Positions 24,185 to 61,013 of a stretch of 64,000 bases of DNA are shown piece by piece (the first letter of the stretch is position 1; every line of letters starts with the position of its first letter). The DNA lies in contig JADGBR010000014.1 in the NCBI GenBank assembly GCA_015231405.1, positions 3,555 to 67,554 of the forward strand, given 5' to 3'. The notes under the pieces are model-generated. The model was not told where the DNA came from, made no database searches, and was given only the letters and a program-made list of their open reading frames with translations. Both the position numbers and the translations under genes were made by a program. The stretch comes from Candidatus Omnitrophota bacterium (GTDB lineage Bacteria > Omnitrophota > Gorgyraeia > Tantalellales > Tantalellaceae).

Positions 24185-24240
24185 TCTGCAATGACGTGTA
24201 AAGAACCTCGGCGGCGCTTTGGCCGAGGTGGTTTGGCCGA
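24185..24240. repeat. Intergenic copy (3' half) of the short repeat element also found inside the giant toxin gene
   Basis: ctgcaatgacgtgtaaagaacctcggcggcgctttggccgaggtggtt aligns with 31742..31790 (ttgcaatgacgcgtataacgcctcggcggcgctttggccgaagtggtt) at roughly 85% identity. Confidence 0.6.
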
Positions 24241-27045: not shown

Positions 27046-27247
27046 AGGTTAACATACAAGTTAACCTTATGCAACTTTCTTATGTGCGTTATTGGTGCGT
27101 TATTGGGGTCAGACCTCATCTTTACACAAAATATTTTAGCATAGTTTATGATGAAAATAATTTGAAACATTTTTTATGGTTTTGGTGTCTCTATAGGTAT
27201 GGGTTGAAAGCATACCTGATCAGCATTTATAACCAAGGAGGGTTTTC

Positions 27248-28198
27248 ATGGCAAGGCCATTACGCATAGAGTACCCGGGGGCTTTATATCATGTCACATC
27301 CCGTGGCAATGAACGAAAGAACATTTTAATTACTGACGATGATAAATCCGTTTTTCTTGATATTCTGACAACTGCGGCCAATCGGTTCAAGATCGTATTA
27401 CATGCTTATTGCTTAATGACCAACCATTATCATTTTCTCATTGAAACAGCAAAAGCCAACTTAAGCAAATGCATGCAGTATATCAATTCTTCATATACAA
27501 CCTATTTCAACCGGGACAGGAAAAGATCAGGGCATCTTTTTCAGGGAAGATATGGAGCATTGCTTGTTGAGGAAGAAAGCTATTTGATAAAATTATCTCA
27601 ATATATACATTTGAACCCAATAAGAGCAAAGTTAGCACGTCATCCCGCTGATTACAAATGGAGCAGTTATAGATTTTATAAGCATTGCGAGCCCGGCAAG
27701 CCTGATTTTCTCGATCTGCAAAAGACCTTAGGGTATTTCAATGATGACCGTGGATTATACGCCGAATATATTGAGGAGGCTATACAGTCTAAAATAGTGG
27801 ATTTTTTACCGGAAGCTTTTGCCGGCTTGATATTGGGCAGCCAGGATTTTATCGACCAAATTAAAAAGAAATATGTGGACAAAAGAAAGAATCCGAGGGA
27901 CCTCCCTTCGCTCCGGAAGATAAACAAGACGGTCATTTGCCCTGATAAAATAATTGAAATAATCAACGCCAACTCGAAGGATATCCAAAATAAATATCGT
28001 ATAAAATTACTGGTTCTTTTCCTGAGGAAATATACAGATTTGACTTTGGCCGAGATCTCTAAAACCATAGGTACCGGAAAAACACCACCGGCTATCAGCA
28101 ATATATTCTATAGATTGGATAATGACCGAAACAAGAATGCCCATCTCAACGAACTGATAAATATTCTAGAAACAGAAATGTGTAAAGATGAGGTCTGA
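27248..28198 (+). CDS. HUH (Y1) transposase of the IS200/RayT (COG1943) family with a long C-terminal extension
   Basis: MARPLRIEYPGALYHVTSRGNERKNIL ... CLMTNHYHFLIET (HuH motif HYH) ... catalytic Tyr region. 316 aa, longer than minimal TnpA. No obvious terminal hairpins identified. Confidence 0.7.
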   Translation: MARPLRIEYPGALYHVTSRGNERKNILITDDDKSVFLDILTTAANRFKIVLHAYCLMTNHYHFLIETAKANLSKCMQYINSSYTTYFNRDRKRSGHLFQGRYGALLVEEESYLIKLSQYIHLNPIRAKLARHPADYKWSSYRFYKHCEPGKPDFLDLQKTLGYFNDDRGLYAEYIEEAIQSKIVDFLPEAFAGLILGSQDFIDQIKKKYVDKRKNPRDLPSLRKINKTVICPDKIIEIINANSKDIQNKYRIKLLVLFLRKYTDLTLAEISKTIGTGKTPPAISNIFYRLDNDRNKNAHLNELINILETEMCKDEV

Positions 28199-28424
28199 CC
28201 CCATTACGGACCCCATTACGACCCATCATTTTTACTCTATCAACTCCAAAAAAAATACTTATCACTCTTTATTATCCTAACAGAATAGGCAAAAAATTTT
28301 TGTTGCTTACTGCTTCAGATGTTTTTGATTCATTTTTGTCTTTCTACTCCTTTGCAATTATTCATCTAGTGCAAAAATGAGGTTTGACCCTCTTACTTCT
28401 ACAGCAGCGTCATGTGCAACTGTT

Positions 28425-28886
28425 CTATAGTCCTTTCAACATTTCTTCGCTTCTCTTTCTTGTGTACTCAACCAGCTTTTCTCTATTCGCAAAATAGTCT
28501 GAAGCTTTAAAAAGACTTAGTATTTTGGGGAAATACTTTGTTGCCAATACGGAATAATTTTCCAACTGCTTACGTTGTCTTTCTCCATAATCCTCAATTC
28601 CTTCATCAAACTCACATCTTTTCAAATCATTTTTATCAATACCCAAATATTCAAATAATAGTTTTAACCCAAATGTACTTGATTTCATCTGAATCGAACT
28701 AATTCCTATTAATATTTCACCTCTATCGGTATTAATATTTACATATATGTTATTATTTTTATAAAGAGTGCAGGAATTCCCAAAATTTTCTTTATCGACT
28801 GCATAAGACACAAATTCAAAATTGTATTTTTTAAATATATCAGAAAAATATTTGTTAATTTCATCTTTTAAAATAAAATCTGACAT
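28425..28886 (-). CDS. Putative immunity protein for the adjacent polymorphic-toxin C-terminal tip
   Basis: 153-aa cytoplasmic ORF beginning 15 bp after the stop of the giant toxin gene, on the same strand. It lies in the same AT-rich segment as the toxin tip. No recognised family. Confidence 0.55.
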   Translation of the reverse strand: MSDFILKDEINKYFSDIFKKYNFEFVSYAVDKENFGNSCTLYKNNNIYVNINTDRGEILIGISSIQMKSSTFGLKLLFEYLGIDKNDLKRCEFDEGIEDYGERQRKQLENYSVLATKYFPKILSLFKASDYFANREKLVEYTRKRSEEMLKGL

Positions 28887-28900
28887 AAATTCCCCTTTTG

Positions 28901-31900
28901 TTACTTAATTAACCAGAAATAATTTTTCCCTTCTCGCATTACAATTTTATATTCTTTACTAAGCAAGTAATCAATTTCTTTTCGCAGATATTTACCAGCT
29001 AAAGCATAAGGTGTAGTGACATAAAACGCACGGGTTTTTAACATCGCTCTATCTAAGAACTTTCTGTTCATCTCCCAAAGTTCATCTTCATTCATTATTT
29101 TAACAAATTTCTTCCATATTTTATCAGGAATACAAAAATAATTTGCATTTATTCTTTTTGCAACTTCTATATATTTATATTTACCACTATTTATCCAAAT
29201 CCCGTAATTACTGCCCAGAACAGTAATATCTTTCCCAATATTTCTATATGATTTTAGCCCATTTCCGGCTGCTTTTATAGCATTTAATGGCACCACTGTT
29301 CCAACTGCTAATAATGATAAAGCTGCTTCATCTCTCTTTCCTCTGGATAAATAAATTAAACCATTTATTGCGTCAATTGTATCACCAACTCCCGGAACAA
29401 CTCCAGCCCAATCTAAATATGACTGCATTACGTCAAATGAACTGTCAAATATTGCTTCATTAATGCCACCGGCGTTAAATGACACATAACCGATTTTATA
29501 ATTAGCAGGCGATAAATACCCTTCCGATGTTAATATGCTTTCGGCTGACTCATAGCTATTATTAAAAACATCTTCCGGCTTAACTGATACTCCGTTTATT
29601 GTTAATTCATAATCCTCCCCTGCCAGCCTGTTGATCTCGGCAATCATTCCATCTTCCGTCAAGATGACCTTATCGTTTATCTTTACTTCAACACCTTTGC
29701 TAATGGCAAGCTTAGCGCTTTCGATGAGCGATACCCTTCCCGTCGCGTCCATCATCGAATCCCAGGACGAACCGAACATTTCGCTGAAGGCGTAGTTGTC
29801 GCCGTCTACTTTCAGGTCGACGATTTTGCCGGTATTCGGATCGTAGACTGTTGTGTAATCGATGAATTGGCCGGCATCGTAGGATAATTCTGATTCCGTT
29901 ATTTCCAGGATTTGATAATTGGCATCATAGAGAGTTACCGTGCCGTCTTCGCTCGTTACTCTTGTGTTGCCGTTATCCAGGCACTCGACTTTCGTGGATG
30001 TATAGCTATTAATGCCTTTCGTTATTTCCGTTTTTGTTATTTTCCCGGCATCTGTCTCTACTATATTCATCGTTGTAGCGTTATACGTAAAAACAGCCTT
30101 GTTGCCGGTATTAATGTCGATTAAGGTTATTTGTTTTGTGCCGTCGGAGAGGGTTTTCTCGCTTTCGACGGCTCCTTGGTATTTATCCCGTAATTTGTTT
30201 AATTCGGCATTTATATTTTCATAGTGTATTTCACGTATTGCTATTTCATTCTGCATGTACTGCCTTGTCCCATCTAAACCGGCGCCTATCACGCTCGATA
30301 CGGTCATCTGGAGCATATTGCTGTACCATTGTTCACCATATTTGTTTTCGAGCGCGTTCATAGTTTCCGTGGATATAACCTGTGAGGCTGTATTAAAGAA
30401 GACTTCAGTCGCGAACATGGCGGTCGAATTCAGAATTTTCATATCAAAAGCTGGGTTGGCGAAGGCGTTTACGGGCATTAGGGTGATGGCGGCGGCTAGG
30501 CCTATGCCTAGTTTACTTAGCCAGTTGTCTGATTTGGAGATCTGTTCCATGGCATAGTTTGAGATTCCGCTGGTTATCATGCCGCCGAGGTAGTTTCTGA
30601 CGGCGTCGCCTAGTAAGGCTTTTGGGGCGAACTCAGTACTGATCCAGGGGTTAAGGGTATTCTTTAACCAGTTTCCGGCGGATTGGAAACCTTCCGCGGC
30701 CTGGCGGCATAGGGTCATTACTCCGCCGATCGCTTTTTGGCCGATTGATATTAAATTGTCCGTAATGCCCAGAGTTATCTGGCCCAGGGTTCTTCCGACT
30801 GCGCTGAGACCAGTCCAAATTCCCTCCATCATCTGGCCTGCCATACCTGCGATCGGCGCGGCGACGAATGCCGTAGCGGCGGATAAGAATATTGACGCTA
30901 CTCCCATTCCCATTATTGTCATCGCCTGGCCGTATTGGCCGTAGCAGATGGCTGTGGCCATGTTTGTTACGGTGTTCATGATCGGGTATGCTAGGGTTCC
31001 GCCCGATATCACCGACATTACTGATCCCACCACCAACGCGCCGATCGCGCCGGCTACTCTTCCCCATTTGCCTTCCTGGGCGGCGTATTTGATGGCGTTG
31101 ATCATTTGGACTACGGGTTGGATGATGTTGGTTACTATTTTTTTGACGGCTTTTACTATGCCTTCGAAGATCTGGGTTACTTTTTTCCAGAGTTTGTCCC
31201 ACCAGCCGGCGGCTTTTATGTCTAGGAGTTGGGTGTCGGTTAGGCGGTTTTTGTAGTCGCTGCGGGCGGTGGAGAGGGTGGTGCCTTCGTAGTTTTTCTT
31301 GAATTCGGTTAGGGGTATTTGTTTGGTTTGTTCGATGTTGTTTATGTAGCTGTTGGTGACTTTGATGTGGGTTATGGTGCCGGTTGTGTCGCGGATTACT
31401 CCGGTTACGGTTAGGAAGTGGGTGCCGTTGTAATGGACTATTATTGGGATTGCTTCGTCGCCTTCGGCTCCTCGCAATGACGGGGCGTCGGCTCCTTGCA
31501 ATGACGAGGCTTGACGGATGAAATCATCAAATGTGTATTTTGAACCGTAAACGTCTAGGCCGTGTTTTTGGGATACTTTTTTTAGGGCGTACATGGTTAG
31601 GAGGAGCTGGCCTTGAGTCTCGGAGGTGATGGCGCCGGTGATTAGGTCGACGAAGATGAGTTGTTGTAACAGGTAGTTCATTATTGACAGAGATTGCTTC
31701 GTCGCTTCGCTCCTCGCAATGACGAGGGCGGCTTCGTTGGCTTGCAATGACGCGTATAACGCCTCGGCGGCGCTTTGGCCGAAGTGGTTGTCCTGGGTTT
31801 TTAGCCGGGTTATGATGATTTGGATGTCTTCTTTTGTTATGTTGACGAGGAGCGACGGGTCGATGTCGTAGCCGCGCTCTTTCAGATATGCCGGCTTATC

Positions 31901-40900: not shown

Positions 40901-43405
40901 CGCGGCGCGTTTCTCCTTCTCAACTCTCCCCATTCCCTGGCCGAGCCAGTTCTCGTTCAGGTAGCGGTAATAGATATTACCGGAAGCGTCCGGCAAGGCG
41001 AGGGCCATGGATTCGCGGTAATTGGCCGCGTCGTCGTAATAAGTATTCGTGAGTTTAAACTGTGTCATAGCGGTGTCCGCGTAGTCCTCCAGCTTGATCA
41101 TCCTCGACGGCGCTAAGGACGAATAATAAAACCTGGTCGCTATACACCCCGAGGTATCCGGGGCTGATCTTATGACAATATCCAAAGAACTCGCGGAATT
41201 ATTAAGATAGTGGTAATACACATACCCTCTTGTGTCAGCCGGGATATATGTCCTTGACGCTATCCGGCTGGCTGTATCATCGTAATAAGCCGCCGTCTCC
41301 TTGAGCATGGTCATCGCGGCATCCAAATAGAACTCCCGGCGTATGACCCTTGTCGGCGTCGTTCCCGAATAAAAGTATTTGTACGCCATATACCCGTCCG
41401 TATCCGCGGCCTGTCTCATGGCGTAATCGCACCGCGCATTGGCGTCGTTCATATAATGATAGAATACTGCCCCTCCTGCGTCCGGAGCGGCAAGGGCCAT
41501 TGATTCCCGGTAATTGGTGGCGTCATCGTAATAAGTGTTCGTAAGAGTAAGCTGCGTCATCGCGGCGTCCGCGTAGCTCTCCAGTTTTATCATCCTTGAG
41601 GGCGTGACGGACGAAAAATGATATTTCGTGGCTATGCATCCCGAGCTATCCGAAGCCGATCTTTTGGCAATATCCAGTGAACTCGCGGAATTATTAAGAT
41701 AGTGGTAATACAAATACCCTCTTGTGTCAGCGGAAGTATAGCTCCTTGATTCGATCCGGTTGGCCGTATCATCGTAATAGTTCGCTGTCTGCTTGAGTTG
41801 GGTTAACGCGGTGTCCGAATAGAACTCCAGGCGTATGACCCTTGCCGGAGTCGCAGCGGAATAAAAGTATTTGTACGCCATGTAACCGTCTATATCCGCA
41901 GACTGGCGCTTTGTCATATCCACTCTCCCGTACCCTTCGGAGTTCCAGTTCTCATTTATATAGTGATAATAAATATTCCCGGAGGCATCAGGCGACACTA
42001 AAGTTTTTGACTCCATCCAGTTACTGGCGTCGTTATAATAAGTCACCGCGGAAACGCTATCGGCTATCGAGCTGACTCGCCCCGCCGTGTCGTTGAAATA
42101 GATATATGTCCTTAGTAATCCCGTCCCTGCGGCACCTCTATAGGCCTTTATCGACTCTACTCGCCCGGCCGTATCGCCATAATAAGTGTATATATACGAT
42201 AGCGCGCCGTTCGCGGTCGCGGTCAGCCGTTGAGCCTTGTCTACCCTGCCGCCGCCTTGAGAATTCCAGTTCTCGTTCATCAAATGGTAATAAATGTACC
42301 CGGACGTATCAGGAGAAACAGATGTGATGAACTCGGTATATCCTGTAACGTCGTTATAATAGGTATATGTCCTTATCAGTGTCGTCCACGAGGTGTTAAT
42401 GTATGCCATCCTCGTCTTGAGCCTACCGGTGGCATCGGCATAATACGTGTAAGAATACGACAGTTCACCGTTATCGGCTGTGGAACGTTTCGCCTTGTCG
42501 ACCCTGCCAAAACCCTGTCCCAGCCAGTTCTCGTTGATATAGTGGTAATAAATATTCCCGTAAATGTCGGCAGCGGCCGACGTCTTGGATTCCACATAGC
42601 TCCCGGCATTATTGTAATACGTGTAAGTGGCGACCAGCGATCTCCAGCCCGCGTCCGAGTACGACTTTACCGTCGAGAGATACGCGGTCGAGGCGCTATA
42701 ATAGGTATATGTGTACGATAGTTCCCCGTTAATGCCCGTACGCCGGATACCTTTATCGAGCCTGTTCATTGTGTTGTTCGCGAAATGGCAGTAGTATAGC
42801 CCTGTCAAAGGGTCGAACTGGCTCCCGATGTATATTTTTGTGTCCTTCCGGTTATATGAATTGTTATAGTACGCGGTGTCGGCAAGCGCGTTCGTCCAGT
42901 TCTTATCGGTATACGATCTTTTTGTCTTGAGGCGGCCGCTCGCGTCGCTGAAGTATATATAGGTATCGGAAAGCTCGCCGTCAGGTGCCGCCGTATCCCT
43001 GTAAGATTTATCTACCCTGCCATACCCTCGATAGAGCCAGTTCTCATCCAAGAAATGGTAATATAAGTTGCCGTCAGTATCGGAGGCCGCAAGAAGTATG
43101 GATTGAACACGGCCGCTCGAGTAATAGGTTTTCGTTCCGGGAAGGTCCGTAAGTTTCTGCGTCTGGGGACTCTTCGGCACGGAAAAACTTTCGATAGCCT
43201 TTTTGGAATCCACCGCTGACTGTGCGGCGGACTCACTTGCCGTGATATTGTCCGTTGTAACCGACGGCGCAAGCTGATTTCCTGAGCCGGTGGGCACACC
43301 GTATGGATCTATCGCCGCCCATGCGACCTCGTGGAAAAAAAAGATCCCGGCAACTATCGCCGAGATCATCTTCAGTATCATTTCTTTTCTCTGCAAGGAA
43401 AACAT
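28901..43405 (-). CDS. Giant (4834 aa) Sec-signal RHS/YD-repeat polymorphic toxin with teneurin-like domain content and an unclassified C-terminal toxin tip
   Basis: Signal peptide MFSLQRKEMILKMISAIVAGIFFFHEVAWAA. About 14 long YYHY.NENW...GRVDK...YTYY repeats (about 38.3-43.1 kb). Dense RHS/YD repeats (YDAKKRVISHTDPYGNTVNYVYNSDGSL, YEYDKNADG, FSYDSDGAMIS; about 35.1-38.3 kb). Three discoidin/F5-8C-like domains (about 32.8-35.0 kb). Two DUF4214-like units (about 32.0-32.5 kb). A Gly/Ala/Met-rich hydrophobic module (about 30.4-31.2 kb). A PT-TG-like motif WAGVVPGVGDTIDAINGLIYLSRGKRDEA (about 29.29-29.41 kb). An AT-rich roughly 130-aa C-terminal tip (28904..29290). Confidence 0.9.
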   Translation of the reverse strand: MFSLQRKEMILKMISAIVAGIFFFHEVAWAAIDPYGVPTGSGNQLAPSVTTDNITASESAAQSAVDSKKAIESFSVPKSPQTQKLTDLPGTKTYYSSGRVQSILLAASDTDGNLYYHFLDENWLYRGYGRVDKSYRDTAAPDGELSDTYIYFSDASGRLKTKRSYTDKNWTNALADTAYYNNSYNRKDTKIYIGSQFDPLTGLYYCHFANNTMNRLDKGIRRTGINGELSYTYTYYSASTAYLSTVKSYSDAGWRSLVATYTYYNNAGSYVESKTSAAADIYGNIYYHYINENWLGQGFGRVDKAKRSTADNGELSYSYTYYADATGRLKTRMAYINTSWTTLIRTYTYYNDVTGYTEFITSVSPDTSGYIYYHLMNENWNSQGGGRVDKAQRLTATANGALSYIYTYYGDTAGRVESIKAYRGAAGTGLLRTYIYFNDTAGRVSSIADSVSAVTYYNDASNWMESKTLVSPDASGNIYYHYINENWNSEGYGRVDMTKRQSADIDGYMAYKYFYSAATPARVIRLEFYSDTALTQLKQTANYYDDTANRIESRSYTSADTRGYLYYHYLNNSASSLDIAKRSASDSSGCIATKYHFSSVTPSRMIKLESYADAAMTQLTLTNTYYDDATNYRESMALAAPDAGGAVFYHYMNDANARCDYAMRQAADTDGYMAYKYFYSGTTPTRVIRREFYLDAAMTMLKETAAYYDDTASRIASRTYIPADTRGYVYYHYLNNSASSLDIVIRSAPDTSGCIATRFYYSSLAPSRMIKLEDYADTAMTQFKLTNTYYDDAANYRESMALALPDASGNIYYRYLNENWLGQGMGRVEKEKRAAARGGELSSQYTYNADTFGRVLTKQVYSDGDCTVLVKTYSYYNDMDGRIQSVSDAASGTIETYYNDAATYLTQKTMSDGSYVIYSYHDGTDKVSLEKLYLRNGKLYSDTEYNASGKMSGYTDYSLGRVCEFDLYGNIVSDTVSNRLQGLYEYTYDNGAMISSVYLDAVSGVVTVTDHYNEALGLVKSYRYAPGAIVDGGISYLLEDLSSPYITASYTTEEDIIVGTEHVTGPGAVEYYVISRYNKNGQVVSRTGKLLSGEADNAETVAGSTAAYTYDSNGDILSELGPGAEEPFVYEYDKNADGAVMEKRFLDIKKSRMTLERYDSSGRLTESFNVPSHYLDGPTGPVIVRDGSPETPIITCAYSTSTLPGGFIAEKRVKDKDASGNDVDFTEITEYDAKKRVISHTDPYGNTVNYVYNSDGSLSSESDTYSGSEVTTLITYAYSTSGNVDEIIKTTNVYATGADKSAGNPVKAVIEHDRITRDEYLRVTKEIKYTEIAGSEDPITFYETLYAIDGNVTEENERTASGPGSVTSYKYNGRGGVSEIDYPSGKKDAYLYVRDNIGRLRSETVITSEADIVGSVYTTSVTTVFDPATGDTLSYTDSSGNVTAYSYSRDAKGGLLSEKETVTGSNGTFLGSKETIYDKDGREISITVNKGMADEERTDFSYDSDGAMISRAITRLDAGGKEEVTSESYGADGLLAMVTEPSGVMTEYSYLKDKTGAITLKTVTEKTKTVDGTKTVTVKKYDAKGYLVYDEDTEKGLIKEMVPSYENQGTPLEYLREERSILTQRAEGAPPVMITTSKKFNDRGQLIEIGDGARPGMGYSYYGADSSSGHIGDLAAQIDPAGIRIDYTYTYDTTGGHIISKKSVYSEKDSTGVYRVNYALDHGYDILGRVTLETDKYGVKRTYTYEPLDVEPSTVTTETVSYTDKDGNAVSSTVVMKYSPDGKTLIETDRPDGTVTYYDHTGADPLVLTGERILRPGGGGGILLKEVTYRYDDTTGRIKESIATDTRGTDNVSDDIVKVTSYDISNTGKNIKETSVYAPGVYSPDGKAQVREIYHYKTSGALDRVETMGLSGTTYKTDIESFYAVYNGKVLVKTRTTGEGREDFNYDGDGNLTDSVFTSGLYSARTEKRYAANGDVINVTMKGMDGDTVTDITYVRNAIGNITGKTETVRYRPYNLAGGNTDTILAVKSYTYYGSEDSDKAIYPEATASGAVKTMTSGGKTYSYEYTYDAEGVLTITKETVSWDEGASRYTAVSLKKSDTKGDIIASIDTEGVYSEYEYSTDAENAMGGKVQTEKSYYGLIDAKDPSKGYTRYRRSSFDGSLPEGLSESRTVRVYDFDNDLVSLTEANDPANVSDDIVTRYTYVKDELGRVKAGYETVNGRAGVKVSEYDEKGDLVSETDRNGMKVTYSYERDGVLGYIKKTVAGNVLYPGFSQTTGYDTRGDVISVTGSNGIRKTYTFIRDASGKITARKEDTTSSAALSGSGILMNYTETSEYDANGDITGFTDKNGIKRTTRYIYDRYGNEAKTITEVIFVSGTSGKITVTDYNPDGTESRVTEMNDPASSEDDITRTYSYKYDQITGVLSEKTETDIRYSGVTVYRYDNSGDVTIVVSPNGVTLSYAVKKDDKGGTIERYTKTSLSPDAVEKEEFDTEGNRISLTDANGHIATYLNTYDGKSDLIKATEYRTGPSGLYTSVVNEYDSFGRIKLSVDKNGTPSAYEYSVTPWGAVTSSREYDPRGTVGGGYDGSVLRVFDAVTSDLISMTDRLGLTTVYEYGRSPEHGGITLKTERAPLGGTTVYGMDKYGRIISVTDTYDKTVTVSLEFDTCGNMTKRLLSWQETIDGQGVQDYVEEEYYSIEGDLVKRVDRLKNVYTYIAEKNGKGDLARLVTVDHGRNNDKMDISSVDYDASGRIISRTTPRGDVTYYAYQFGSGGEVKKIYESVAPTGEKIDALKPVEIKNISVRNCYFGVDPWQLVDDKYDNWQNFGWEYSMPTDRTSIILDLTGNGSDQDNVSALGLSFRSPYNYPYTVYYATNEAPDNWIKIKTTDLNTDNDWFIDSFGTPVAARYIRIENANEKYWTTAMQLNEVKVYRTEKVSGTVRVSDLDKYGRAVSEKNALMLLWEERPDLKKLFINPNSQCQLNNYFSGKDVSEWARFTGALEDPRIAGYISDYANRNSPLIKEYFEKGSKGHMVTSVTPVSASWSDNVSYLTDYSVTAGSASIRWDNDTVLPYFRLDLGGLTDIGKFRIKFRDDGNSYKYRIFTSEDGVNWEGATDRTDMLYSGWVEDLISPRKARFVKLEAVYGAASDGKVNRQMNVDELMILDTASDTYPPNGYATDTMLAWAKGSGSRLYADLAKYADNTYPDKDRPSGTMISYENTDSSGIPRSRYEISTYTGAAAKLYDPKGVLTEELLVNESSAVVTPIVYPGSASSLEKVYGAGGDILAERNILGRLWEETVEARDLFLVPGYTYNGMTFKTWVASKGQGYFSLLGNKGSSDINALDDPYIARYAYTRDDTGFVASVSKIVNYVQETYSVYKKPVPGENPLNDMILLDGTKHTSTGGVNPSLDYDGYDTTAYSSESFSPDADVTSTHEFAQPVTLSEIYYNTRVSADSGGRGESYDMNVQYLQAGSSVWVDVARTSGCRAFDVCFSGTWHGTLANVTAIRVRATARAWNGDNNNAYAEIFELSARGPADTGQPVVVQREFKALDATRKKYSYTYHPNGNLAGMDVDVSGKDTKDYYMRYDALGNITLYNEDGRNYSYEYTRDRWNNIEKVKVDGSDTVFMNNGKSWDEEAVVSRVKDYFAAMLYRAPASDELTFCVSEWRKTGYTNFVRDYIKNLTEYKNGPKDTGGQTLALERAARLSGMLTCYNVALSAGAVLTAALSAGISLIKEGYNNAVSAYTAAKGRNDKKYISEIYREELGREATDEELTETLAHMRSNNLTLESEREHIRNASDPASEYAKRRAEITVIINSLYTETEAGTSTGILADYLAASDKPAYLKERGYDIDPSLLVNITKEDIQIIITRLKTQDNHFGQSAAEALYASLQANEAALVIARSEATKQSLSIMNYLLQQLIFVDLITGAITSETQGQLLLTMYALKKVSQKHGLDVYGSKYTFDDFIRQASSLQGADAPSLRGAEGDEAIPIIVHYNGTHFLTVTGVIRDTTGTITHIKVTNSYINNIEQTKQIPLTEFKKNYEGTTLSTARSDYKNRLTDTQLLDIKAAGWWDKLWKKVTQIFEGIVKAVKKIVTNIIQPVVQMINAIKYAAQEGKWGRVAGAIGALVVGSVMSVISGGTLAYPIMNTVTNMATAICYGQYGQAMTIMGMGVASIFLSAATAFVAAPIAGMAGQMMEGIWTGLSAVGRTLGQITLGITDNLISIGQKAIGGVMTLCRQAAEGFQSAGNWLKNTLNPWISTEFAPKALLGDAVRNYLGGMITSGISNYAMEQISKSDNWLSKLGIGLAAAITLMPVNAFANPAFDMKILNSTAMFATEVFFNTASQVISTETMNALENKYGEQWYSNMLQMTVSSVIGAGLDGTRQYMQNEIAIREIHYENINAELNKLRDKYQGAVESEKTLSDGTKQITLIDINTGNKAVFTYNATTMNIVETDAGKITKTEITKGINSYTSTKVECLDNGNTRVTSEDGTVTLYDANYQILEITESELSYDAGQFIDYTTVYDPNTGKIVDLKVDGDNYAFSEMFGSSWDSMMDATGRVSLIESAKLAISKGVEVKINDKVILTEDGMIAEINRLAGEDYELTINGVSVKPEDVFNNSYESAESILTSEGYLSPANYKIGYVSFNAGGINEAIFDSSFDVMQSYLDWAGVVPGVGDTIDAINGLIYLSRGKRDEAALSLLAVGTVVPLNAIKAAGNGLKSYRNIGKDITVLGSNYGIWINSGKYKYIEVAKRINANYFCIPDKIWKKFVKIMNEDELWEMNRKFLDRAMLKTRAFYVTTPYALAGKYLRKEIDYLLSKEYKIVMREGKNYFWLIK
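31441..31510. repeat. Short repeat element copy 1, in-frame inside the giant toxin ORF
   Basis: ttattgggattgcttcgtcgccttcggctcctcgcaatgacggggcgtcggctccttgcaatgacgagg. It shares gattgcttcgtcgc(c)ttcg(g)ctcctcgcaatgacg with 31691..31725 and 52269..52300. Confidence 0.65.
31681..31795. repeat. Short repeat element copy 2 (longest copy, about 110 bp), in-frame inside the giant toxin ORF
   Basis: ttattgacagagattgcttcgtcgcttcgctcctcgcaatgacgagggcggcttcgttggcttgcaatgacgcgtataacgcctcggcggcgctttggccgaagtggtt. Its halves match the intergenic copies at 52266..52302 and 24185..24240 respectively. Confidence 0.65.
41040..42000. repeat. Intragenic tandem duplication of about 480 bp x2 within the N-terminal repeat domain of the giant toxin gene
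   Basis: 41040..41520 and 41520..42000 align along their length. They share identical stretches such as actcgcggaattattaagatagtggtaataca and ggcaagggccat.gattc.cggtaattgg. Confidence 0.7.
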
Positions 43406-43694: not shown

Positions 43695-46600
43695 CTACAC
43701 CGGCTGCTCGACCGTTGTTCCGGCTCCGGCTCCCTGGAATTGGCCTTCGCCGTAAGTGCCCGCGGCGGTTCCCTGTATCTCGTTACCCTGGAACTGGCCG
43801 GTTACACCCGCGGACCACTGGTTATCGGCCCACTGTAAACCTGTAAGGTTGACATTATAGTTCTCCGACTGGAACGCCGCTCCCCAGGTGCTCGTATCCG
43901 TCACGCCCTGATCATATGTGCCGTTTATGATCGCCGCCCATATGTTGGTCGCGTCGAACGAATACAAGTTCATGTCCATTGTAGCCGTCTGTATCTGGCC
44001 GTATACGGAAGTCGCCTGCATGGCCTCGGTTATCGGTATCATCACGTCGTTGAAATTGTTGATAATATCCTGCATCTCCGTCACGATATTGGCAAGGTCG
44101 AGAAGCTCTTCGGCTTCCACCCATTCGCCGGCTACCGCTCCGCCAAACTGGGCGCTGATCTCAGCTCCGTCTTCGGCCTCGATATATTCGCCCTTCGTCG
44201 CCAGGACAGCGTCGCCTTTAATGCTCCCGAATCCCTCAGGTGATACCCAGAGACCGGTAAATTTCCCGTCCATGTGGCCTTTAACCGCCCAGCTGTCACC
44301 CGAAAGAGTGGCAAGATATGTGACATAATCCCCTATTTCTCCCGTCATCGGCATTTTCCACGCCGAAAGGTCTCCCTGGTATTCTCCTTCGATATTCGCC
44401 CCCCATATGCCCCAATTCGCACCGGAAAGGGATAATACAGGTCCGCCTTCGGTAAATTCCCCGGCCATATTATCGTTATAACCATACCCATGTATCCAAT
44501 CCGTTTCAACCATGTCATAAAGGTCTTCAGGCATTATGCTGCCGGCATAGGGCATTTCCCTGTAAATATCCACGGCTCCGTTTAGCTCCAGCATATCGAT
44601 GGATTGGTATGTCGTCCCGAGGAATTTCCCACCTATATATCCTACCTTGCTCTCTCCCGTTCCCTGGTCGGGCGGAGTGACAAAGAACGCTCTCATGAGA
44701 CTAGCGGCAGTACCACCCATAACGTAACCTCCCATAAGGCCGTAATAAGCGCCGCCGTCATAAGTCGTATAAGATTCCTCGTCATAATTCTCGCTGGTAA
44801 GGCCCGTACCCCAAACGAAAATACTGTTAGGATCGACCTCTCCGAGTTCATATTCGCCGATAAATAAAGCCGGGGTCGTTGCCCCGCCCCACAGGCTCTC
44901 CGTGCCGCCGAATATACCCCTTATACCGCCGCAGGCGTATCCTTCATTTGAAAGTTCGGTTTCCACCGAACTCGCGAAAGAAAGATGTTCATCCTCGTAT
45001 ACTCCCAGCACCGAAGCTATGAAGGTACCGGACTCGACTGTTGGATCGGAGGTATTCTCCCCAAAAAGGTCACCCTCGATGGTCGTAAGGTCCGTCATCG
45101 ATAACCCTTTACCCGTAAGCTTTCCGAATATCAGGTTATCGGCTTCCGGACCGTTGTATTCCCATCCGCCGTTAAGCCACCTTATCTGGTAGTAGTTGTC
45201 GATGGCATCGCCCGAAACAGCCTGCCAGGTAGTTTCCCCGGCCGGCCTATTCTCATAATAATTGGAGTCCCCGAACTTCATCTCGAAAGCGCCCCATTTC
45301 CTCCCATCGATGGAATAACTGTACCCTTCGGAAAGATTAGCTCTGATATAGCTGTCATTGCCGCTGCCGAACGACCCCACAAAAGTCATAGGGTCGATGT
45401 TCTCCTCCTGGATCATTCCGCTTAGATCCGCCGGGTCTATCCCTGAATCTTCTTCCATTACGGTAGCCGCTATCGTCCCCTCGAGTATCCACATACCCAG
45501 TTCCGTGTAGTACTCGCCGGCGAGAAGCCCGCCGTTCGCCCTCATTTGAGCGATATCGCTCAAAAACGAGCCGGATAACAAGGAACCGTTATAGTTCCTC
45601 AAATACCCTATTTTCCCGTTCGGATCGGCGTATAGAGCCAAAAACCCTCCGGTCATCTTGCCGTCCATCAGAACCCCCGCCGATACGCCTTTAAAAGCGC
45701 CGCCGTCAAAAGTGACATACTCATCGTCAACTACGTTATAGCTTTCCACGGGAGTGTGCCAGAGATAAGCGCCATTCTCATCCCCCTCGACGTAAAAGTC
45801 TCCCATAGCGCGGATAGTCGCCGGGGCGTTCCACGGGCTGGATGTGCCTCCTATAAGGCCCGTATCTTCACCCTCCCATCTGTAATAACCCGCGTCATTG
45901 GAGTATATGCTGCACTCGTTCTCCCCCCACACTCCGCTGAACCAAAGGCGCTCCCCTTCCCAGGAGCCCGCTCCGCCGGCCTGGAAAACTGTAGATCCCT
46001 CATAGTTGAAACAGTTGCCTATTCCCACGCCGGATATATCTCCCATTTTCGTCCCGGTAAGGAACTTACCCGCGGCCGTAAAACTGAGATCGCCGTTGGA
46101 GAGAATGCCGTCCTCTGTTTCCATTATCCAGTAACCGTGATCCTGGCTATAATCATACCCCATATTCCCGCCCATCCATTGCGACTGAGCTGTTTCTGTT
46201 CCCGGAGCCGGAGGAGTACCGAGGATATCTTCCAGAGAATCGACTCCCGGGGTCCATGTGCCCGTGATAGTTTCATATGAACCTTCTTCGTTCTGGAAAT
46301 ATTTTTCCCATGTCCCGTCGGCCTTATAGCTGAGCTGATAATATTCACTTCCATTCTGGCGGTAATACCTGGCATACCCCTGGGTGTTATCCAGCGAATA
46401 GGAATAAAAATAGTCGCCGTCATATCCGTAGTATCCCCCGTTCCAGTCGTAGTAATAGTACTGCCCGTCATGTTCCGTAGTCGTAAGGTAAGCGCCTATC
46501 GGGTCATTGCCGCCAAGAACCGCCGAAAATCCGGAGTTCTCCCCCTGCTGATAGATATATCCCCATATTTTCTGGTCGTATATACCCCAGTCGTAGGTCT

Positions 46601-49600
46601 TGCCCTCGTCCCAATTTATGAGCGACGACGTATAAAAGTTATCGCTGCCCTCTATGGACCCTTCTTCGCCGATATGCCCAAAAAGGGATCCTTCACCCTG
46701 TTCCGTATTGTATATGTACTCGCTGATATCCGATGCCGGGATGTCGGTATACTCCGCTTTCTCTCTTGCGTCCGTCATACCTGTCATTTTCCACATCTCG
46801 AGGCCCGGATATGCCTCTCCTTCGAGATAGCTTGAAAGAACGCCGGCCTTATGGTCCGGAGATATGTATATCGCGGATAAATATCCGTTAAGCCGGGTAC
46901 CTTTCCAGGATCCCACGGTCGTCCCGTAAAAAGCGCCGCCGTCAAGTGTGCTGTCATCGTCGGCTAAAACGTTATAGCTCGACACCGGCGTATGCCATAT
47001 GCTCTCTACAGGTTCTTCGTCGTTGAAGTAATACTCACCCATGGCCGTGATCTCAGTGCTGGCTGTCCAGGGAGAAAGTATTGTTCCAATAAGTCCCGAA
47101 TCCTCTCCTACCTGTTCCATATAACCATAATCGGAATTATAGCGGTATAGGCTGCTTATGTCTTGCCCTCTTCTCTCATTTGCTCCCCATGTTCCGCTTA
47201 GTTTAAGCTGATCCCCTACCCATACTCCGAGACCCACTCCCTGCCAAAGCCCGGTCGAGTCGAAAGCCTGGCCCCAGATATCACCCACCATATGCGACAA
47301 TCTCGTATAACCGAGGAAATAGCCGTCTAGAGTCGCGTTCAACGCTCCTTCCACATTAGTTCCGTCGATAGGAGCTATCCAGTATCCCCGGTCGCCTTGT
47401 AAACTTTCGTAGCTTGAATTACTGGTATATACTGTGATCGCGCCCTCGACCTCGATATTCTCCGCTATTACATCCGCAAGCGATCTGGATGTATCCCAAT
47501 TGCCGGACAAATAATTCCCGTTGCTATAATCATAACCGGAATATGTCCCATCGCCGTCATAACTCAGGTAATACTCACGATATCCAAGGTCACTATAGGT
47601 GTACACATACTGATACCCTGAGTTGTTATTCGAGTCGTAATTGTAGTTAAAACTACCTGAATTATAGCCTTCCGACGAGGCGAAATAACCGCTAGCCTCA
47701 AAATGTTCGTACGCGCTGGCTACGCCTATACTGTCGTATCCGCCCATAACGGCCGAGAAAGCGGTATCCCCGTTCGGATTTGAGAAGTTTCCCCATAAAG
47801 TCTGGCTGTATATGCCCCAATCCGCTGAAACCCCGGTTTTCGTATTGACAAGCGAAAATTCCTGAAAATTATCCTGGCCGGTAATGCATCCTCCGGTCTC
47901 GAAACCTCCGTCAAGATACCCGGCGTCATTGTTGCCATAGTGGTAAAGATTTTCCGGCGCCACGGTGTTCTCGGCGTCCATTACTTCAGGCGTCAAAGTT
48001 CCGTCAGCCTTCCACATGTTTATCTCATCGAGAACGGTACCCGACATATCGCCCTTTAAAATACCGGCTTTACCGGAAGGGTCGATATAGACAAGAAGCG
48101 TTTTCCCCTCCAAGGCCAGGCCGTCTACAAGTCCGGCCGACCATCCGTAGAAAGCTCCGCCGTCGGGAGTCGTGTTGTTACCCAGATTCGCGTTATAGCT
48201 CAGTATCGGTGAAAGGAAAATATACGGGTCCGTCGAGATCTTATTGTCGCCGGATAATTCCCCCATCGCCCGATAGGACTCTGTGGAATCCCAGGGAGAG
48301 ACCGCCGCGCCTATGATCCCGTATTCGTGCGTTACCCACCTGAGCTCTCCGTTGTCGTTATAGTAGACGCTGTCATTGTCAGAACCCCATCTCCCCGCGA
48401 AAGTCAGATCTTCACGGGCCTGCCATACCCCGGTGCCGACGCCCATCCAGCTCGACCCCTCGGTATCGTATATGCCGAACACGTCTCCGGACATCGTCCC
48501 GTGCCAGAGGTATGTCAGTATCTCTCCGTCAAGCTTGCCGGAATATTCGCCGTTAGCGTAGGAGCCGTTGTTTATATCGGCTATCCAGTAACCATAGTTC
48601 ATATCGCCTTCGCCGCGTTTACTTTCATCCGTCAGGACGGCGTTGTCCGCGTCAGGGGGCGTCGAGACTATCTCCTCAAGCGTTTTTGTCGTATCCCATG
48701 TCCCTACGAGCTCCCTTCCCGCGTTGTAATCATATCCCTCATAATGCCCGTCTTTGTAATAGGTGATGTAGTAACTCTCGCTATCGCCTCCGTCGTAGTA
48801 GTCCCCGTTATCCCTGTAATAATTCACGCTGGCAGAATGGTTGTCCGTGTAATAAGAGACCTGGTAATAACCGGTACTGTCGCCGTTCTCGTCACGATAT
48901 TCATAGCCCTTTTCTACGTACAGATACGGATCGATCGTCCCAAAAGGATCGGTCCCGCCCCCTATCACCGCCGAAAAACTTCCTTCGTTATCCGGGTTGT
49001 TATATGTCCCGGCCATCCTCTGGTAATATATACCCCAATCCTGCGATACCCCCGCATTGAAATTGACTATATTCATGGTCTCAAGATTCTCGTCCCCGGT
49101 AATACTGCCTGTCCCTTCGCCGAAACTTCCGGATATCGCCGCTCCTCCCTGCCCGGTTTGCGCGGAAAGATACAGGTCTTCCGGATCTACGCCCAGATCA
49201 CCGGAAGCAACCATCTGGGTGGGAGTTATTGTCCCTCCTGCCGTCGCGAAACCGGTTTCAGGATAAGTTTTACCGGAAAGGTGTCCTTTAAGATATCCAC
49301 CGTTACCGCTCGGGTCTATGTACAGCCCTATAAAATATCCTTCCAACGCGCCGGCTTCAGTACCAAGGATACGTCCTACATAAGCTCCACCGTCATAAGT
49401 GGTGTAGGTGTCATCATTATAATTATAGCTAAAAAGGTCCGATCCCCAGACATGCCCGTAGCTATTATCCCCGCACGAATATTCCATCAAGAGATACGCC
49501 ATCGCGCCGTCTCCCCACATAGACCCAGTCCCTCCCAAAAGACCGTTTAGATTCCCTGAATAGTCCCAGTTGACGTAACTGTTCTCATACTCGACGGAAT

Positions 49601-52265: not shown

Positions 52266-52302
52266 GTTAGAGATTGCTTCGCTTCGCTCGCAATGACGCG
52301 CT
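52266..52302. repeat. Intergenic copy (5' half) of the short repeat element, in the 5' leader of the 2850-aa gene
   Basis: agagattgcttcgcttcgctcgcaatgacgcg matches 31689..31727 (agagattgcttcgtcgcttcgctcctcgcaatgacgag). Confidence 0.6.
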
Positions 52303-52311
52303 CAGTTCAGA

Positions 52312-53838
52312 TCAATATTTAAACTGTACCCCGGCGCCTACTATGTGCCTCGAGTACTCGTAAACGCTCAGGTTCGATCTCTCGTTAATAAAGGTGTACC
52401 TTATCTGTAATTCGAAGTTTTCCAGGAGTTCGTACATCAGCATAGTCCCGGCGGTATAAGTCTGGTCAAACCGCTTTTTATCATAGATCGTATGCTTGTT
52501 CTCGTAATTCTGGAAATAGACGTCCCCGTTCAAGGTAAGCTTCAGCTTATCGCAGACAGGGTACAATATTATCGAGCCTATTTTATTACCTATATAATCC
52601 CAGTTCTCGCCTCTGGCGAAGTCATCGTCAAAAGTGTAGCGCAGGTTCAGGAATCCCTGATTTTCCTTGAAGAACCAGTACATGCCCCCCAGCGCCGTGA
52701 CCCTATTCGAGTCGCGGTTCTCCGCCTCTATCTGGACAGGCCTTAAATAATCGTTGTTGGCGTATATTACCCCGACCTGGGCCATCTTGGTCTTATCCAG
52801 CATTATGCTGTTAATATTCCCGGCGCTTATCGAGGACAGGTAATTCTTATCGTCGACTATAGTATGGCTATAATTCACCGGCACCGTTAGAAGCATCTTA
52901 TCGAGGGAAAGGCCTCCCTGCAGGGACACGTTGTTGCCGATGGTGTCGTATTTACCCAGGTCGTTCTGCTTGGATACCCTTATACCGTAGCCGGGCTTCA
53001 GACTAAGGTTCCCCTCCTCGTTCTTGAAAGTATAGTCTCCCTGGGCGTCGTAGACTTCTCTGGTATCCGATTCGTCCGTAACGCTTGTGATCGAGGTGGA
53101 ATCAGAAGGTTTTAGAAGGACATTCGAATCGTATTCGAAAGCGGTCCTAGCGGTGAAGTGAAAAGGCTGATCCTTAGTGACCTTCCGGTCCATCGCGTCG
53201 AGATATTTATCGGCGTATGTTCCGAGCTCGGAATTCGGGTCTAGCTCCATGACTTCCCTGAAAATATCCTTGGCTTCTTTAAAATCCTTGTTCTTCAGAT
53301 GGCATACCCCGATCTGGTATTTCGCGGACTGCTTGAGACGGTCGTCCAATTCAGCGGCTTCCTCGAACGCTTTTATGGCTTCGGCGTATTCTTCAGTCTT
53401 CTGTAGAGTGAGACCCTTCAGGAACTTCGCCTGCGCCGGCCTTATGCCTTCCTCTTCGGCTACGGCGATCCATTTTTTCGCGGCGTCATAGTCCTGTAAA
53501 CGGTAAAGCAGATCGACAAGCTCGATAAGCGCGCCTTTTATTTTCGGGGTAAGCTCGAGAGATCTCTCGAGGTATTTCCGCGCGTTCACGTAATCTTCCA
53601 TCCTTTTGTAGGTAAGACCCGTGTAGTAAGTTCCAAGCGACGAAGCCGGATCGTTCTTGATCACTTCGGTAAAAACCTTAAGCGCTTCTTCGTAGCTTTC
53701 CTGTCTGAAGTGGTATATACCTTTATTCAGCACCTCGTTCCCTGTCGTCTCGTCCGACTCCTCTGCCATTGCGCGCGAGATCGAAAACGACAAAAACAAC
53801 CCGCATAAAATAAAAGCCCCGAAAAATATTTTCCTCAT
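52312..53838 (-). CDS. Outer-membrane protein: N-terminal TPR repeats plus a C-terminal beta-barrel
   Basis: Signal peptide. About 220 aa of TPR helices (YYTGLTYKRMEDYVNARKYLERSLEL, AKFLKGLTLQKTEEYAEAIKAFEEAAEL). Then about 280 aa of alternating-polarity beta strands ending in an aromatic C-terminus (VGAGVQFKY). Confidence 0.7.
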   Translation of the reverse strand: MRKIFFGAFILCGLFLSFSISRAMAEESDETTGNEVLNKGIYHFRQESYEEALKVFTEVIKNDPASSLGTYYTGLTYKRMEDYVNARKYLERSLELTPKIKGALIELVDLLYRLQDYDAAKKWIAVAEEEGIRPAQAKFLKGLTLQKTEEYAEAIKAFEEAAELDDRLKQSAKYQIGVCHLKNKDFKEAKDIFREVMELDPNSELGTYADKYLDAMDRKVTKDQPFHFTARTAFEYDSNVLLKPSDSTSITSVTDESDTREVYDAQGDYTFKNEEGNLSLKPGYGIRVSKQNDLGKYDTIGNNVSLQGGLSLDKMLLTVPVNYSHTIVDDKNYLSSISAGNINSIMLDKTKMAQVGVIYANNDYLRPVQIEAENRDSNRVTALGGMYWFFKENQGFLNLRYTFDDDFARGENWDYIGNKIGSIILYPVCDKLKLTLNGDVYFQNYENKHTIYDKKRFDQTYTAGTMLMYELLENFELQIRYTFINERSNLSVYEYSRHIVGAGVQFKY

Positions 53839-60293: not shown

Positions 60294-60348
60294 GGGGGTA
60301 TTATACTACTTATCACACGTGAGCAAAAGGAATATCACCCTTTGTTCC

Positions 60349-60404
60349 GTAGGACGTAGGACGTGGGACGTAGGACGTCCCACGTCCTACGTCCCACGTC
60401 CTAC
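60349..60404. repeat. Heptamer array GTAGGAC GTAGGAC GTGGGAC GTAGGAC immediately followed by its inverse complement GTCCCAC GTCCTAC GTCCCAC GTCCTAC
   Basis: Read directly. A long imperfect hairpin with 7-nt periodicity. The second half encodes the last five codons and the stop of plsC. Confidence 0.7.
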
Positions 60405-61013
60405 GTTTAATGGCAGTACGTCTCTCAGCTCGGCAATACTCCTCATCACCTTCTCGCTTATACCTTCGTACGCATCTTTTCCGGTATTCGGCAAGCTAGA
60501 GCTCAAGGGTTTGCCTATGATAACACGGATGGGACGCAGTTTTACGGTCCTTACGCCGCGGGGCATCGCGTCGAAGGTCCCTTCAATATAGACGGGGACT
60601 ACGGGAACTTTCGCCTTTGCGGCGAACATGCCTATTCCGGGCCGGGCCCTTTTCAGTTCCCGGGTCTTGGAACGCGTTCCTTCGGGGAAGAGCCCAAGGG
60701 CGCCGCCTTTATGAAGAAGTTTTAAGGCCGCTTTTACGGCCCCCTTGTCCCTGCCGCCTCTTTTTAATGATATGGTCTCGATGTGACGAACGACCCATCC
60801 GAGCAATGTGGCGCTAAAAAGGGTTTCCCTCGCGATAAAATGGAGCCTTCTCGGGGATACCGCTATCAAAACCAGGGGATCCAGATAGCTAGCGTGATTG
60901 GCAGCCAGTATAAAAGCCCCTTCACTCGGGATATTCTCCACACCCGAAACACGTAGCCCCAGGCCCAGCCTGAAAAGGACGAACGATATCCGTCTAATTA
61001 AAAGGTATATCAT
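60387..61013 (-). CDS. plsC: 1-acyl-sn-glycerol-3-phosphate acyltransferase
   Basis: 208 aa. Acyltransferase motifs NHASYLD (HxxxxD) and FPEGTRS, plus a hydrophobic N-terminus. Confidence 0.85.
   Translation of the reverse strand: MIYLLIRRISFVLFRLGLGLRVSGVENIPSEGAFILAANHASYLDPLVLIAVSPRRLHFIARETLFSATLLGWVVRHIETISLKRGGRDKGAVKAALKLLHKGGALGLFPEGTRSKTRELKRARPGIGMFAAKAKVPVVPVYIEGTFDAMPRGVRTVKLRPIRVIIGKPLSSSLPNTGKDAYEGISEKVMRSIAELRDVLPLNVGRGT

Follow-up and report, generated by a model that had tools for sequence, protein, structure and literature searches.

The DNA examined here, a stretch of 64,000 nucleotides from contig JADGBR010000014.1 of a Candidatus Omnitrophota bacterium (assembly GCA_015231405.1; hereafter the window), carries a giant toxin-type open reading frame (ORF) in which a short sequence occurs twice, read in a different frame each time. 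The locus raises the question of whether this similarity belongs to the protein or to the DNA and, if to the DNA, what kind of element can enter a coding sequence and be translated as part of it. An initial annotation, made from the letters of the window, proposed a DNA-level repeat resembling the Rickettsia palindromic elements (RPEs). Its central idea is right, and the phenomenon is already in the literature; the additions made here are modest and concern a sub-type of the repeat, the wide range of phyla in which it occurs, and the way in which two segments of a single protein domain are used again and again. The sequences in the window are very likely copies of a short, non-autonomous repetitive extragenic palindromic (REP) element of the CGTC-tagged kind, two of which are translated inside the giant gene.

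Three full units running from GATTGCTTCG to CTCGCAATGACG were found in the 64 kb, all in one orientation: units A and B inside the giant gene and unit C in intergenic DNA (Table 1). With at most one mismatch, CTCGCAATGACG occurs at five sites, all on the + strand (31471, 31495, 31713, 31741 and 52287), where 0.24 would be expected, and none of 100 shuffled sequences reached that number. The sequence GATTGCTTCG occurs at three + strand sites (31448, 31692 and 52272) against an expectation of 0.28, and three sites were likewise reached by none of 100 shuffles. Two 3' half-units, A' and B', accompany the intragenic units, and A' (GGCTCCTTGCAATGACG) is identical at 16 of 17 bases to the end of unit A itself. 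Loosening the search of the window to two mismatches brought no extra copies. Read on the - strand, a unit is 26-38 nt long and is made up of an unpaired CGTC tag, an outer stem of 5 bp (ATTGC/GCAAT), shoulders (GAG and CGAA) that are conserved and rich in purines, a variable centre and a tail of 3 nt; the centre of the window units is a mini-hairpin of the GCGAAGC or GCCGAAGGC type.

In the frame of the giant ORF, copy A is translated as PSLRGAEGDEAIP and copy B as LVIARSEATKQSL, so that the same DNA is used in two frames of one protein, just as had been annotated. When the 300 residues surrounding the copies were used as query in an exhaustive HMMER search, 110 relatives were recovered, nearly all of them segments of proteins of 1000-7000 residues. 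When aligned, the seven closest relatives (45-51% identity) have exact gaps of 11 residues (33 nt) at B and 14 residues at A. Because the core is read in two frames, and because homologues of about 50% identity lack exactly those residues, it is a DNA-level insertion; the further proposal that such insertions are tolerated in frame agrees with the same alignment. The intergenic copy that had been reported near 52266..52302, ahead of a 2850-aa gene, proved to be a complete unit of the short form. It sits in a 64-nt spacer between two same-direction genes, 13 nt past the stop of a TPR gene (52312-53838) and 22 nt ahead of the start of the 2850-aa FecR-domain gene (43695-52247). This is the position typical of REPs, and as part of the transcript unit C could there influence the stability of the mRNA 3' end or the termination of translation of the upstream gene.

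The element is smaller than first drawn. Its core stood, whereas the boundaries, drawn at roughly 35-110 bp, were too wide and had taken in a coding motif and a duplicated gene fragment at 24.2 kb. The supposed second half of the element, 31753-31795, encodes NHFGQSAAEALY. In homologues the residues aligned to it are QDNHFGRSAVEALY or LHFGQSAF; the closest relatives keep QDNHFGRSAVEALY where the window has QDNHFGQSAAEALY, and more distant members keep LHFGxSAF. Since this motif is conserved across homologues, the segment is ordinary coding sequence of a C39-fold domain and not repeat DNA. The other sequence that dropped out, once listed as an intergenic copy at 24185..24240, is a 47-nt direct repeat (24187-24233, - strand) of 31743-31789 with 87% identity. 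It duplicates the conserved coding motif together with just the 10-nt TGCAATGACG end of half-unit B', would read NHLGQSAAEVLYTSLQ, and lies inside no credible ORF, at the far edge of a low-GC island (24.3-29.6 kb) downstream of the giant gene. A search with its 21-nt core gave matches in ten metagenome contigs, each of them in a coding context unrelated to this one, so the sequence is not dispersed. It is best taken as a remnant of that gene segment, most likely not an independent REP copy, and was probably left by a rearrangement of the toxin-tip region. The two members of this 47-nt repeat bracket about 7.5 kb, containing the remainder of the C39-fold domain and the low-GC toxin tip as well as a small downstream ORF, a REP-associated tyrosine transposase (RAYT) gene, an ORF for an ERCC4-type nuclease and a Gp49/helix-turn-helix toxin-antitoxin-like pair; the repeat pair could mark a past rearrangement or cassette exchange.

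Both intragenic copies fall within a single domain of the giant protein, which belongs to the peptidase C39 fold. Of 19 aligned domain members, 18 are matched by Pfam PF03412 (best E 5.2e-11), a PDB profile search with the domain matched 7n87 at 4.2e-6, and the AlphaFold (AF2) model of the domain, with a mean predicted local distance difference test score (pLDDT) of 90.5, finds 6mpz, 3b79 and 5xe8 in Foldseek. H107, F108, S111 and A112 are invariant in the domain alignment. The His belongs to an NGxHF motif, and the Ser (query residue 111) holds the position of the C39 catalytic Cys in 19 of 19 aligned members; in this C39-fold family inside giant RHS-type proteins, Ser has replaced the catalytic Cys and the His is kept. 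The family may represent a Ser-His variant, or it may be C39-like but inactive.

In the structure model, the residues coded by REP B (site 1) form an inserted helix, 124-136, that comes immediately after the Ser-bearing helix. REP A (site 2) lies in the sole stretch with pLDDT below 50, a low-confidence loop at query residues 208-214, nine residues ahead of the invariant His. Both REP-bearing segments vary widely in length across the domain family. The two composite copies, each a full unit followed by its half-unit and both in sense orientation, are simply translated with the RHS-type gene. Composite B adds about 11 residues just after the helix with the nucleophile position, and composite A about 14 residues to the loop ahead of the strand with the invariant His. 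That the inserts persist is probably explained by the variable length of both segments in the family and by inserts that keep the frame and introduce no stop codons.

The giant gene has other features of its own. Its N-terminal part (40946-43084) contains diverged internal repeats, with 300 nt at 82% identity, as well as five 48-nt copies coding NIYYHYxNENW motifs; these are true protein-level repeats, in contrast to the REPs. Over the last 500 nt or so of the gene and the following 153-aa ORF (window 28425-29400) the GC content goes down to 0.25-0.32. No Pfam match was found for the 153-aa ORF, and together the low-GC tip and this ORF resemble the arrangement of toxin tip and immunity gene in polymorphic toxins.

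Table 1. Positions of the repeat units, the host gene and domain, and the transposase gene in the window.
Feature	Position	Strand	Details
REP unit A	31446..31482	-	CGTC-ATTGC-GAGGAGCCGAAGGCGACGAA-GCAAT-CCC; giant ORF translation (P)SLRGAEGDEAI(P)
Spacer and half-unit A'	31483..31506	-	GGCTCCTTGCAATGACG at 31490-31506; encodes SSLQGADA
REP unit B, long form	31690..31724	-	32-nt core GATTGCTTCGTCGCTTCGCTCCTCGCAATGAC; translation (L)VIARSEATKQS(L)
Spacer and half-unit B'	31725..31752	-	CTTGCAATGACG at 31741-31752; encodes ASLQANEAA
REP unit C, short form	52270..52298	-	CGTC-ATTGC-GAGCGAAGCGAA-GCAAT-CTC; intergenic
Conserved C39-fold motif (Q)DNHFGQSAAEALY, outside the repeat	31753..31795	-	Family alignment
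Peptidase C39-fold domain of the giant protein (about residues 3858-4047)	31265..31834	-	Contains both intragenic REPs
Giant host gene, 4834 aa	28901..43405	-	RHS/YD repeats, F5/8 type C domains, C39-fold domain, low-GC C-terminal tip
REP-associated tyrosine transposase gene, 316 aa	27248-28198, bounded region 27087..28220	+	PF01797; NF047646 85.2 bits, cut-off 80

The element is widespread beyond the window. The pattern GATTGCTTCG-N3-20-CTCGCAATGAC, run on contigs from one genome per species, was found at no fewer than 120 loci (at least 120, from at least 12 phyla, among the matches listed). These include Alpha- and Gammaproteobacteria (many of them Bradyrhizobium, Sphingomonas and Novosphingobium), Chloroflexota, Bacteroidota (Pedobacter, Mucilaginibacter, Flavobacterium), Patescibacteria, Planctomycetota, Cyanobacteria, Desulfobacterota, Campylobacterota (Helicobacter rodentium), Firmicutes (Sporomusa), Zixibacteria and Latescibacterota. 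Many units at these loci form inverted head-to-head pairs 20-30 nt apart, often with a 32-nt "long" and a 26-nt "short" member, and the 32-nt core of unit B is identical to units in loci of alphaproteobacterial metagenome-assembled genomes (L011, L029, L033 and L045). The centre is often a perfect hairpin whose sequence differs by genome, such as CCGCC-GTT-GGCGG, GCTTCC-CTCCA-GGAAGC or CCGGCGTC-CAAC-GACGCCGG, and terminal complementarity of at least 3 bp is present in 26% of distinct centres as against 4% of shuffles. Among 173 units from other genomes, a full CGTC was found in 108 and the arrangement of a full unit followed by a half-unit in 6; GCAAT was followed by CCA in 66, the tails in the window being CCC (A) and CTC (B and C). 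On plasmids, the best match lay under no annotated gene in 10 of 10 records, and one Novosphingobium replicon had the element in at least 40 places. A count of open frames across units in other genomes was uninformative, long open stretches on both strands being common at high GC.

REPs were split into GTAG-tagged and CGTC-tagged superfamilies by Di Nocera, De Gregorio and Rocco (2013, BMC Genomics 14:522; PMC3733652). According to these authors, CGTC REPs have an unpaired CGTC (or TGTC/CCTC) at one end, A-T as the first two stem pairs and a 3-nt tail with the consensus CCA, and the four families CGTC-1 to CGTC-4 have a stem of 8-9 bp and a loop of 4-5 nt (PMC3733652). They are mostly head-to-head dimers just downstream of ORFs, have no associated transposase, and include occasional translated intragenic copies, RPE-4 and RPE-6 among them (PMC3733652). 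The class takes in Neisseria dRS3, Rickettsia RPE-6 (CGTC-1) and RPE-4 (CGTC-4), its copy numbers are very uneven among species, and a general function was argued against (PMC3733652).

On the - strand the tag is present in every window unit (cCGTCATT in A, tCGTCATT in B and gCGTCATT in C), as is the AT-first stem ATTGC...GCAAT. Since the units start with CGTC-ATTGC and end in GCAAT plus a 3-nt tail, and since unit C follows a stop codon, they have the tag, the AT start and the location of CGTC REPs; the plasmid matches, too, are outside annotated genes. By these sequence features the element would be a member of the CGTC-tagged class, in a sub-type that we did not find described. Besides tag, stem start and position downstream of ORFs, it has in common with the class the translated intragenic copies and the lack of a linked transposase gene; its tail is likewise of 3 nt, with CCC or CTC in the window in place of the consensus CCA, and head-to-head dimers are seen in other genomes. 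The CGTC-3 peptides of PMC3733652 (VIAGLDPAIH) have the same CGTCATTGCG start as the window element. It differs in its 5-bp outer stem, its GAG/CGAA shoulders and its centre of 3-20 nt, and in its range of phyla, which goes beyond the five given for CGTC repeats.

The likeness to RPEs drawn in the initial annotation thus holds in that the CGTC tag and the AT-first stem place the element in the superfamily that includes RPE-4 and RPE-6. As with RPEs, insertion in genes is in frame and translated, and the insert is absent from homologues, although the host of the window is not a Rickettsia. The stem differs from that of RPE-6/CGTC-1, which gives VIPAKAGI, SFPRKRES and DSRFRGND where the window sub-type gives VIA(S/R)..KQS or SLRG..EAI; compared by peptides only, both RPE-4/CGTC-4 (WIPWSNHGMT) and RPE-6/CGTC-1 (VIPAKAGI) differ from what the window encodes. 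RPE-1 is a longer element of 100-150 bp that is not known to be related in sequence to the one described here. The accompanying comparison with miniature inverted-repeat transposable elements found no support. These are also small, non-autonomous, dispersed and able to land in genes, but for the window unit, of 26-38 nt, no terminal inverted repeats derived from an insertion sequence and no target-site duplication were seen, and the flanks of A, B and C show neither a direct duplication nor terminal inverted repeats.

Several observations weigh against the assignment. The published stem of 8-9 bp with a loop of 4-5 nt is absent, the window units having five canonical outer pairs, GAG/CGAA mismatches and a centre of 12-22 nt. 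A scan for stems of 7-10 bp with at most one mismatch picked out copy A, with a loop of 22 nt, but missed both B and C; it also gave two chance matches. The folding proposed as a check in the initial annotation gave no stable hairpin, nearest-neighbour folding of the window copies being no better than that of shuffled sequences (z -0.9 to +2.3). Centres of the GCGAAGC type and G/A-rich shoulders are poorly modelled by nearest-neighbour parameters. The full units in 64 kb number only three, and none belongs to an inverted pair. The flanks of the units in other genomes were fixed by the search pattern and their conservation is partly by construction, so that only the centre counts as independent evidence. 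Finally, no orthologue above 51% identity was found, and there is therefore no nucleotide-level empty site and the boundaries of the inserts are approximate. A further search for protein homologues with the domain gave no match, and a metagenome search with the locus gave no relatives. A full-text literature search with the DNA strings of the element and the peptides it codes returned nothing relevant, and those parts of the supplements of PMC3733652 that were available held no peptide or sequence of this sub-type.

The most serious alternative, possible although in our view unlikely, is that there was one insertion or none in this genome, either because A and B are related by ectopic gene conversion or because the C39 segment arrived with both REPs through polymorphic-toxin cassette exchange. 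Composites A and B match in 55 of 73 columns, and the agreement extends past the unit: the ATTATTG flank and the GGGCG spacer are shared, and both half-units show the same C-to-T change; such likeness beyond the unit suggests that one composite may derive from the other. Two of the three units in the window are 244 nt apart, the GC skew is positive only at 31.0-32.2 kb, and the 47-nt duplicate, with its half-unit junction, marks the edge of the low-GC island. Against this, A and B do not share a frame, their centres differ (GCCGAAGGC versus GCGAAGC), and different REP types occupy the same two sites in distant homologues, which argues for repeated independent insertion.

The REP-coded peptides of these homologues are VIASPEGAWQS (protein P0011) and VIARSAEGGTKQS (P0016) at site 1, and VIASEVKQS (P0011), VIPAQAGI (P0016 and P0018), VIASPPAGEARQS (P0039) and SLRAPEGGEAI (P0044) at site 2. 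At the DNA level, the gene for P0016 (locus L121) has about seven sense-strand units, with GGTCATTGCGAGGAGCGCCGAAGGCGGGACGAAGCAATC at site 1 and one of the CGTC-1 type at site 2, and that for P0044 (locus L122) has GTCATTGCGAGCCCCCGAAGGGGGCGAAGCAATC at site 2, with another unit in an unrelated upstream gene; the insertion points differ by a few codons. Among the units in the giant gene of L121 (1-6194) are two that form a head-to-head pair, near 1181-1240, and one at 2564 whose stem is the variant ATTTC/GAAAT. In 110 family representatives (299,192 residues), 11 of 14 clear REP peptides fall inside the domain, which makes up 7.9% of the residues, and the REP peptides in these proteins are all in sense orientation. 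Ascertainment bias in this count, the query having held REP peptides, was considered and rejected: when the query is freed of REP peptides, the scores of six REP-bearing homologues remain at 43-53 bits, enough for the same homologues to be listed, and they were therefore not listed merely by way of their inserts. In P0019 and P0072 the same two segments hold other low-complexity, repeat-like peptides (RSTNDDGLTTNDEVRTTNDERR and MPHALCAMP), which suggests that both segments accept several kinds of short repeat DNA.

The simplest explanation of this recurrence is tolerance of length-variable segments. That both segments are true REP hot spots across distant giant RHS-type proteins, through target preference or through selection for variation, with REPs perhaps acting as portable homology patches for toxin-tip exchange, seems improbable to us; the 47-nt duplicate, with its REP half-unit junction at the edge of the downstream low-GC island, counts in favour of that idea, as do the share of REP peptides that falls inside the domain and their common sense orientation.

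Slightly more doubtful still is the proposal that the element is a functional structured RNA or a single-stranded DNA signal under selection at the level of the host, such as a site bound by a conserved protein or an element of the mRNA end, with a role in mRNA for its intragenic copies, rather than a selfish insertion. It draws on the 32-nt identity of unit B with units in alphaproteobacterial genomes, on the compensatory hairpins of the variable centre, on the single orientation of the three window copies to transcription, and on the placement of copy C so soon after a stop. Yet no Rfam family was recovered even at permissive thresholds, the search of the whole window (gathering threshold) and of copy C and the full dimer (E up to 10) giving only chance miRNA- and snoRNA-like hairpins, and the window copies are not more stable than their shuffles. 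A reading as ribozyme or riboswitch found no support beyond the hairpin covariation and was set aside. The uneven copy numbers among species in the literature (PMC3733652) also speak against a general signal, and the insertions in many unrelated proteins look opportunistic.

Similarity arising from a conserved protein motif or a protein-level repeat of the toxin domain is true of 31753-31795, where NHFGQSAAEALY is conserved in homologues and is the motif duplicated at 24.2 kb, but for the core it is refuted by the two frames used in one protein and by the gaps in the closest homologues; the core also recurs both in intergenic DNA (52270-52298) and at 120 or more unrelated genome loci. Chimeric joins in the metagenome assembly are just as implausible: short repeats can cause misjoins, but the frame of 4834 codons is unbroken through both copies, the flanking residues are collinear with homologues on both sides, and independent assemblies have the same kind of in-frame REP at the same sites.

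By analogy with GTAG REPs and their RAYTs, the element would spread by being recognized as a single-strand hairpin. Like GTAG REPs and REPINs, it is a short imperfect palindrome that carries an unpaired tag of 4 nt and occurs in inverted doublets, and a mechanism through single-strand hairpins is presumed for it too. The window also encodes a RAYT equivalog, 0.2 kb past the small ORF (28425-28886) that comes after the giant gene. The tag, however, is CGTC and not GTAG, and the RAYT gene is bounded by 42-nt inverted repeats with AGATGAGGTCTGACCCC, unrelated in sequence to the CGTC REP; a third partial copy of these repeats is found at 28375-28391. In the terms of PMC3733652, this RAYT is flanked by long inverted repeats, not by REPs. 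A tblastn search with two RAYT-like proteins found none encoded in the REP loci listed (at least 120, 0.9 Mb in total). A link between the window RAYT and the CGTC REP was therefore rejected, the end repeats being of different sequence and no RAYT lying near the REPs at the listed loci; the enzyme is a candidate for mobilization, with nothing tying it to CGTC repeats.

Other mobile or repeated sequences were noted in passing. On the contig of P0044 (L122, 12324-13347), a Y1 transposase gene lies about 1 kb downstream of the giant C39-domain gene; it scores 66 bits to the RAYT model, below the cut-off, and a 47-codon duplicate of its 5' end is present. In the window, 60348-60406 is a perfect palindrome of GGACGT-type short repeats (CGTAGGACGTAGGACGTGGGACGTAGGAC / GTCCCACGTCCTACGTCCCACGTCCTACG), a different type of repeat, at the start of ORF 60387-61013 (- strand), whose 5' end overlaps the right arm by about 20 nt. 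At 1971-2071, the inverted repeats GGGGCAAGGGG / CCCCTTGCCCC adjoin a tRNA gene at 1842-1914.

The locus is a clear example outside Rickettsia of REP-type repeats that are translated within a large secreted-toxin gene. At least 12 phyla among the matches listed have this REP sub-type, with its outer stem of 5 bp and its variable centre, in common, sometimes base for base, which bears on a question posed in PMC3733652, namely how short non-coding DNA keeps its identity across phyla without a known transposase. Peptides such as VIA(S/R)..KQS, SLRG..EAI, LLRFARND and DCFASLAMT in predicted proteins are repeat-coded and should serve as a warning in annotation. The recurrent matches at two segments of one domain offer a natural data set in which a preference for insertion can be set against tolerance of it.

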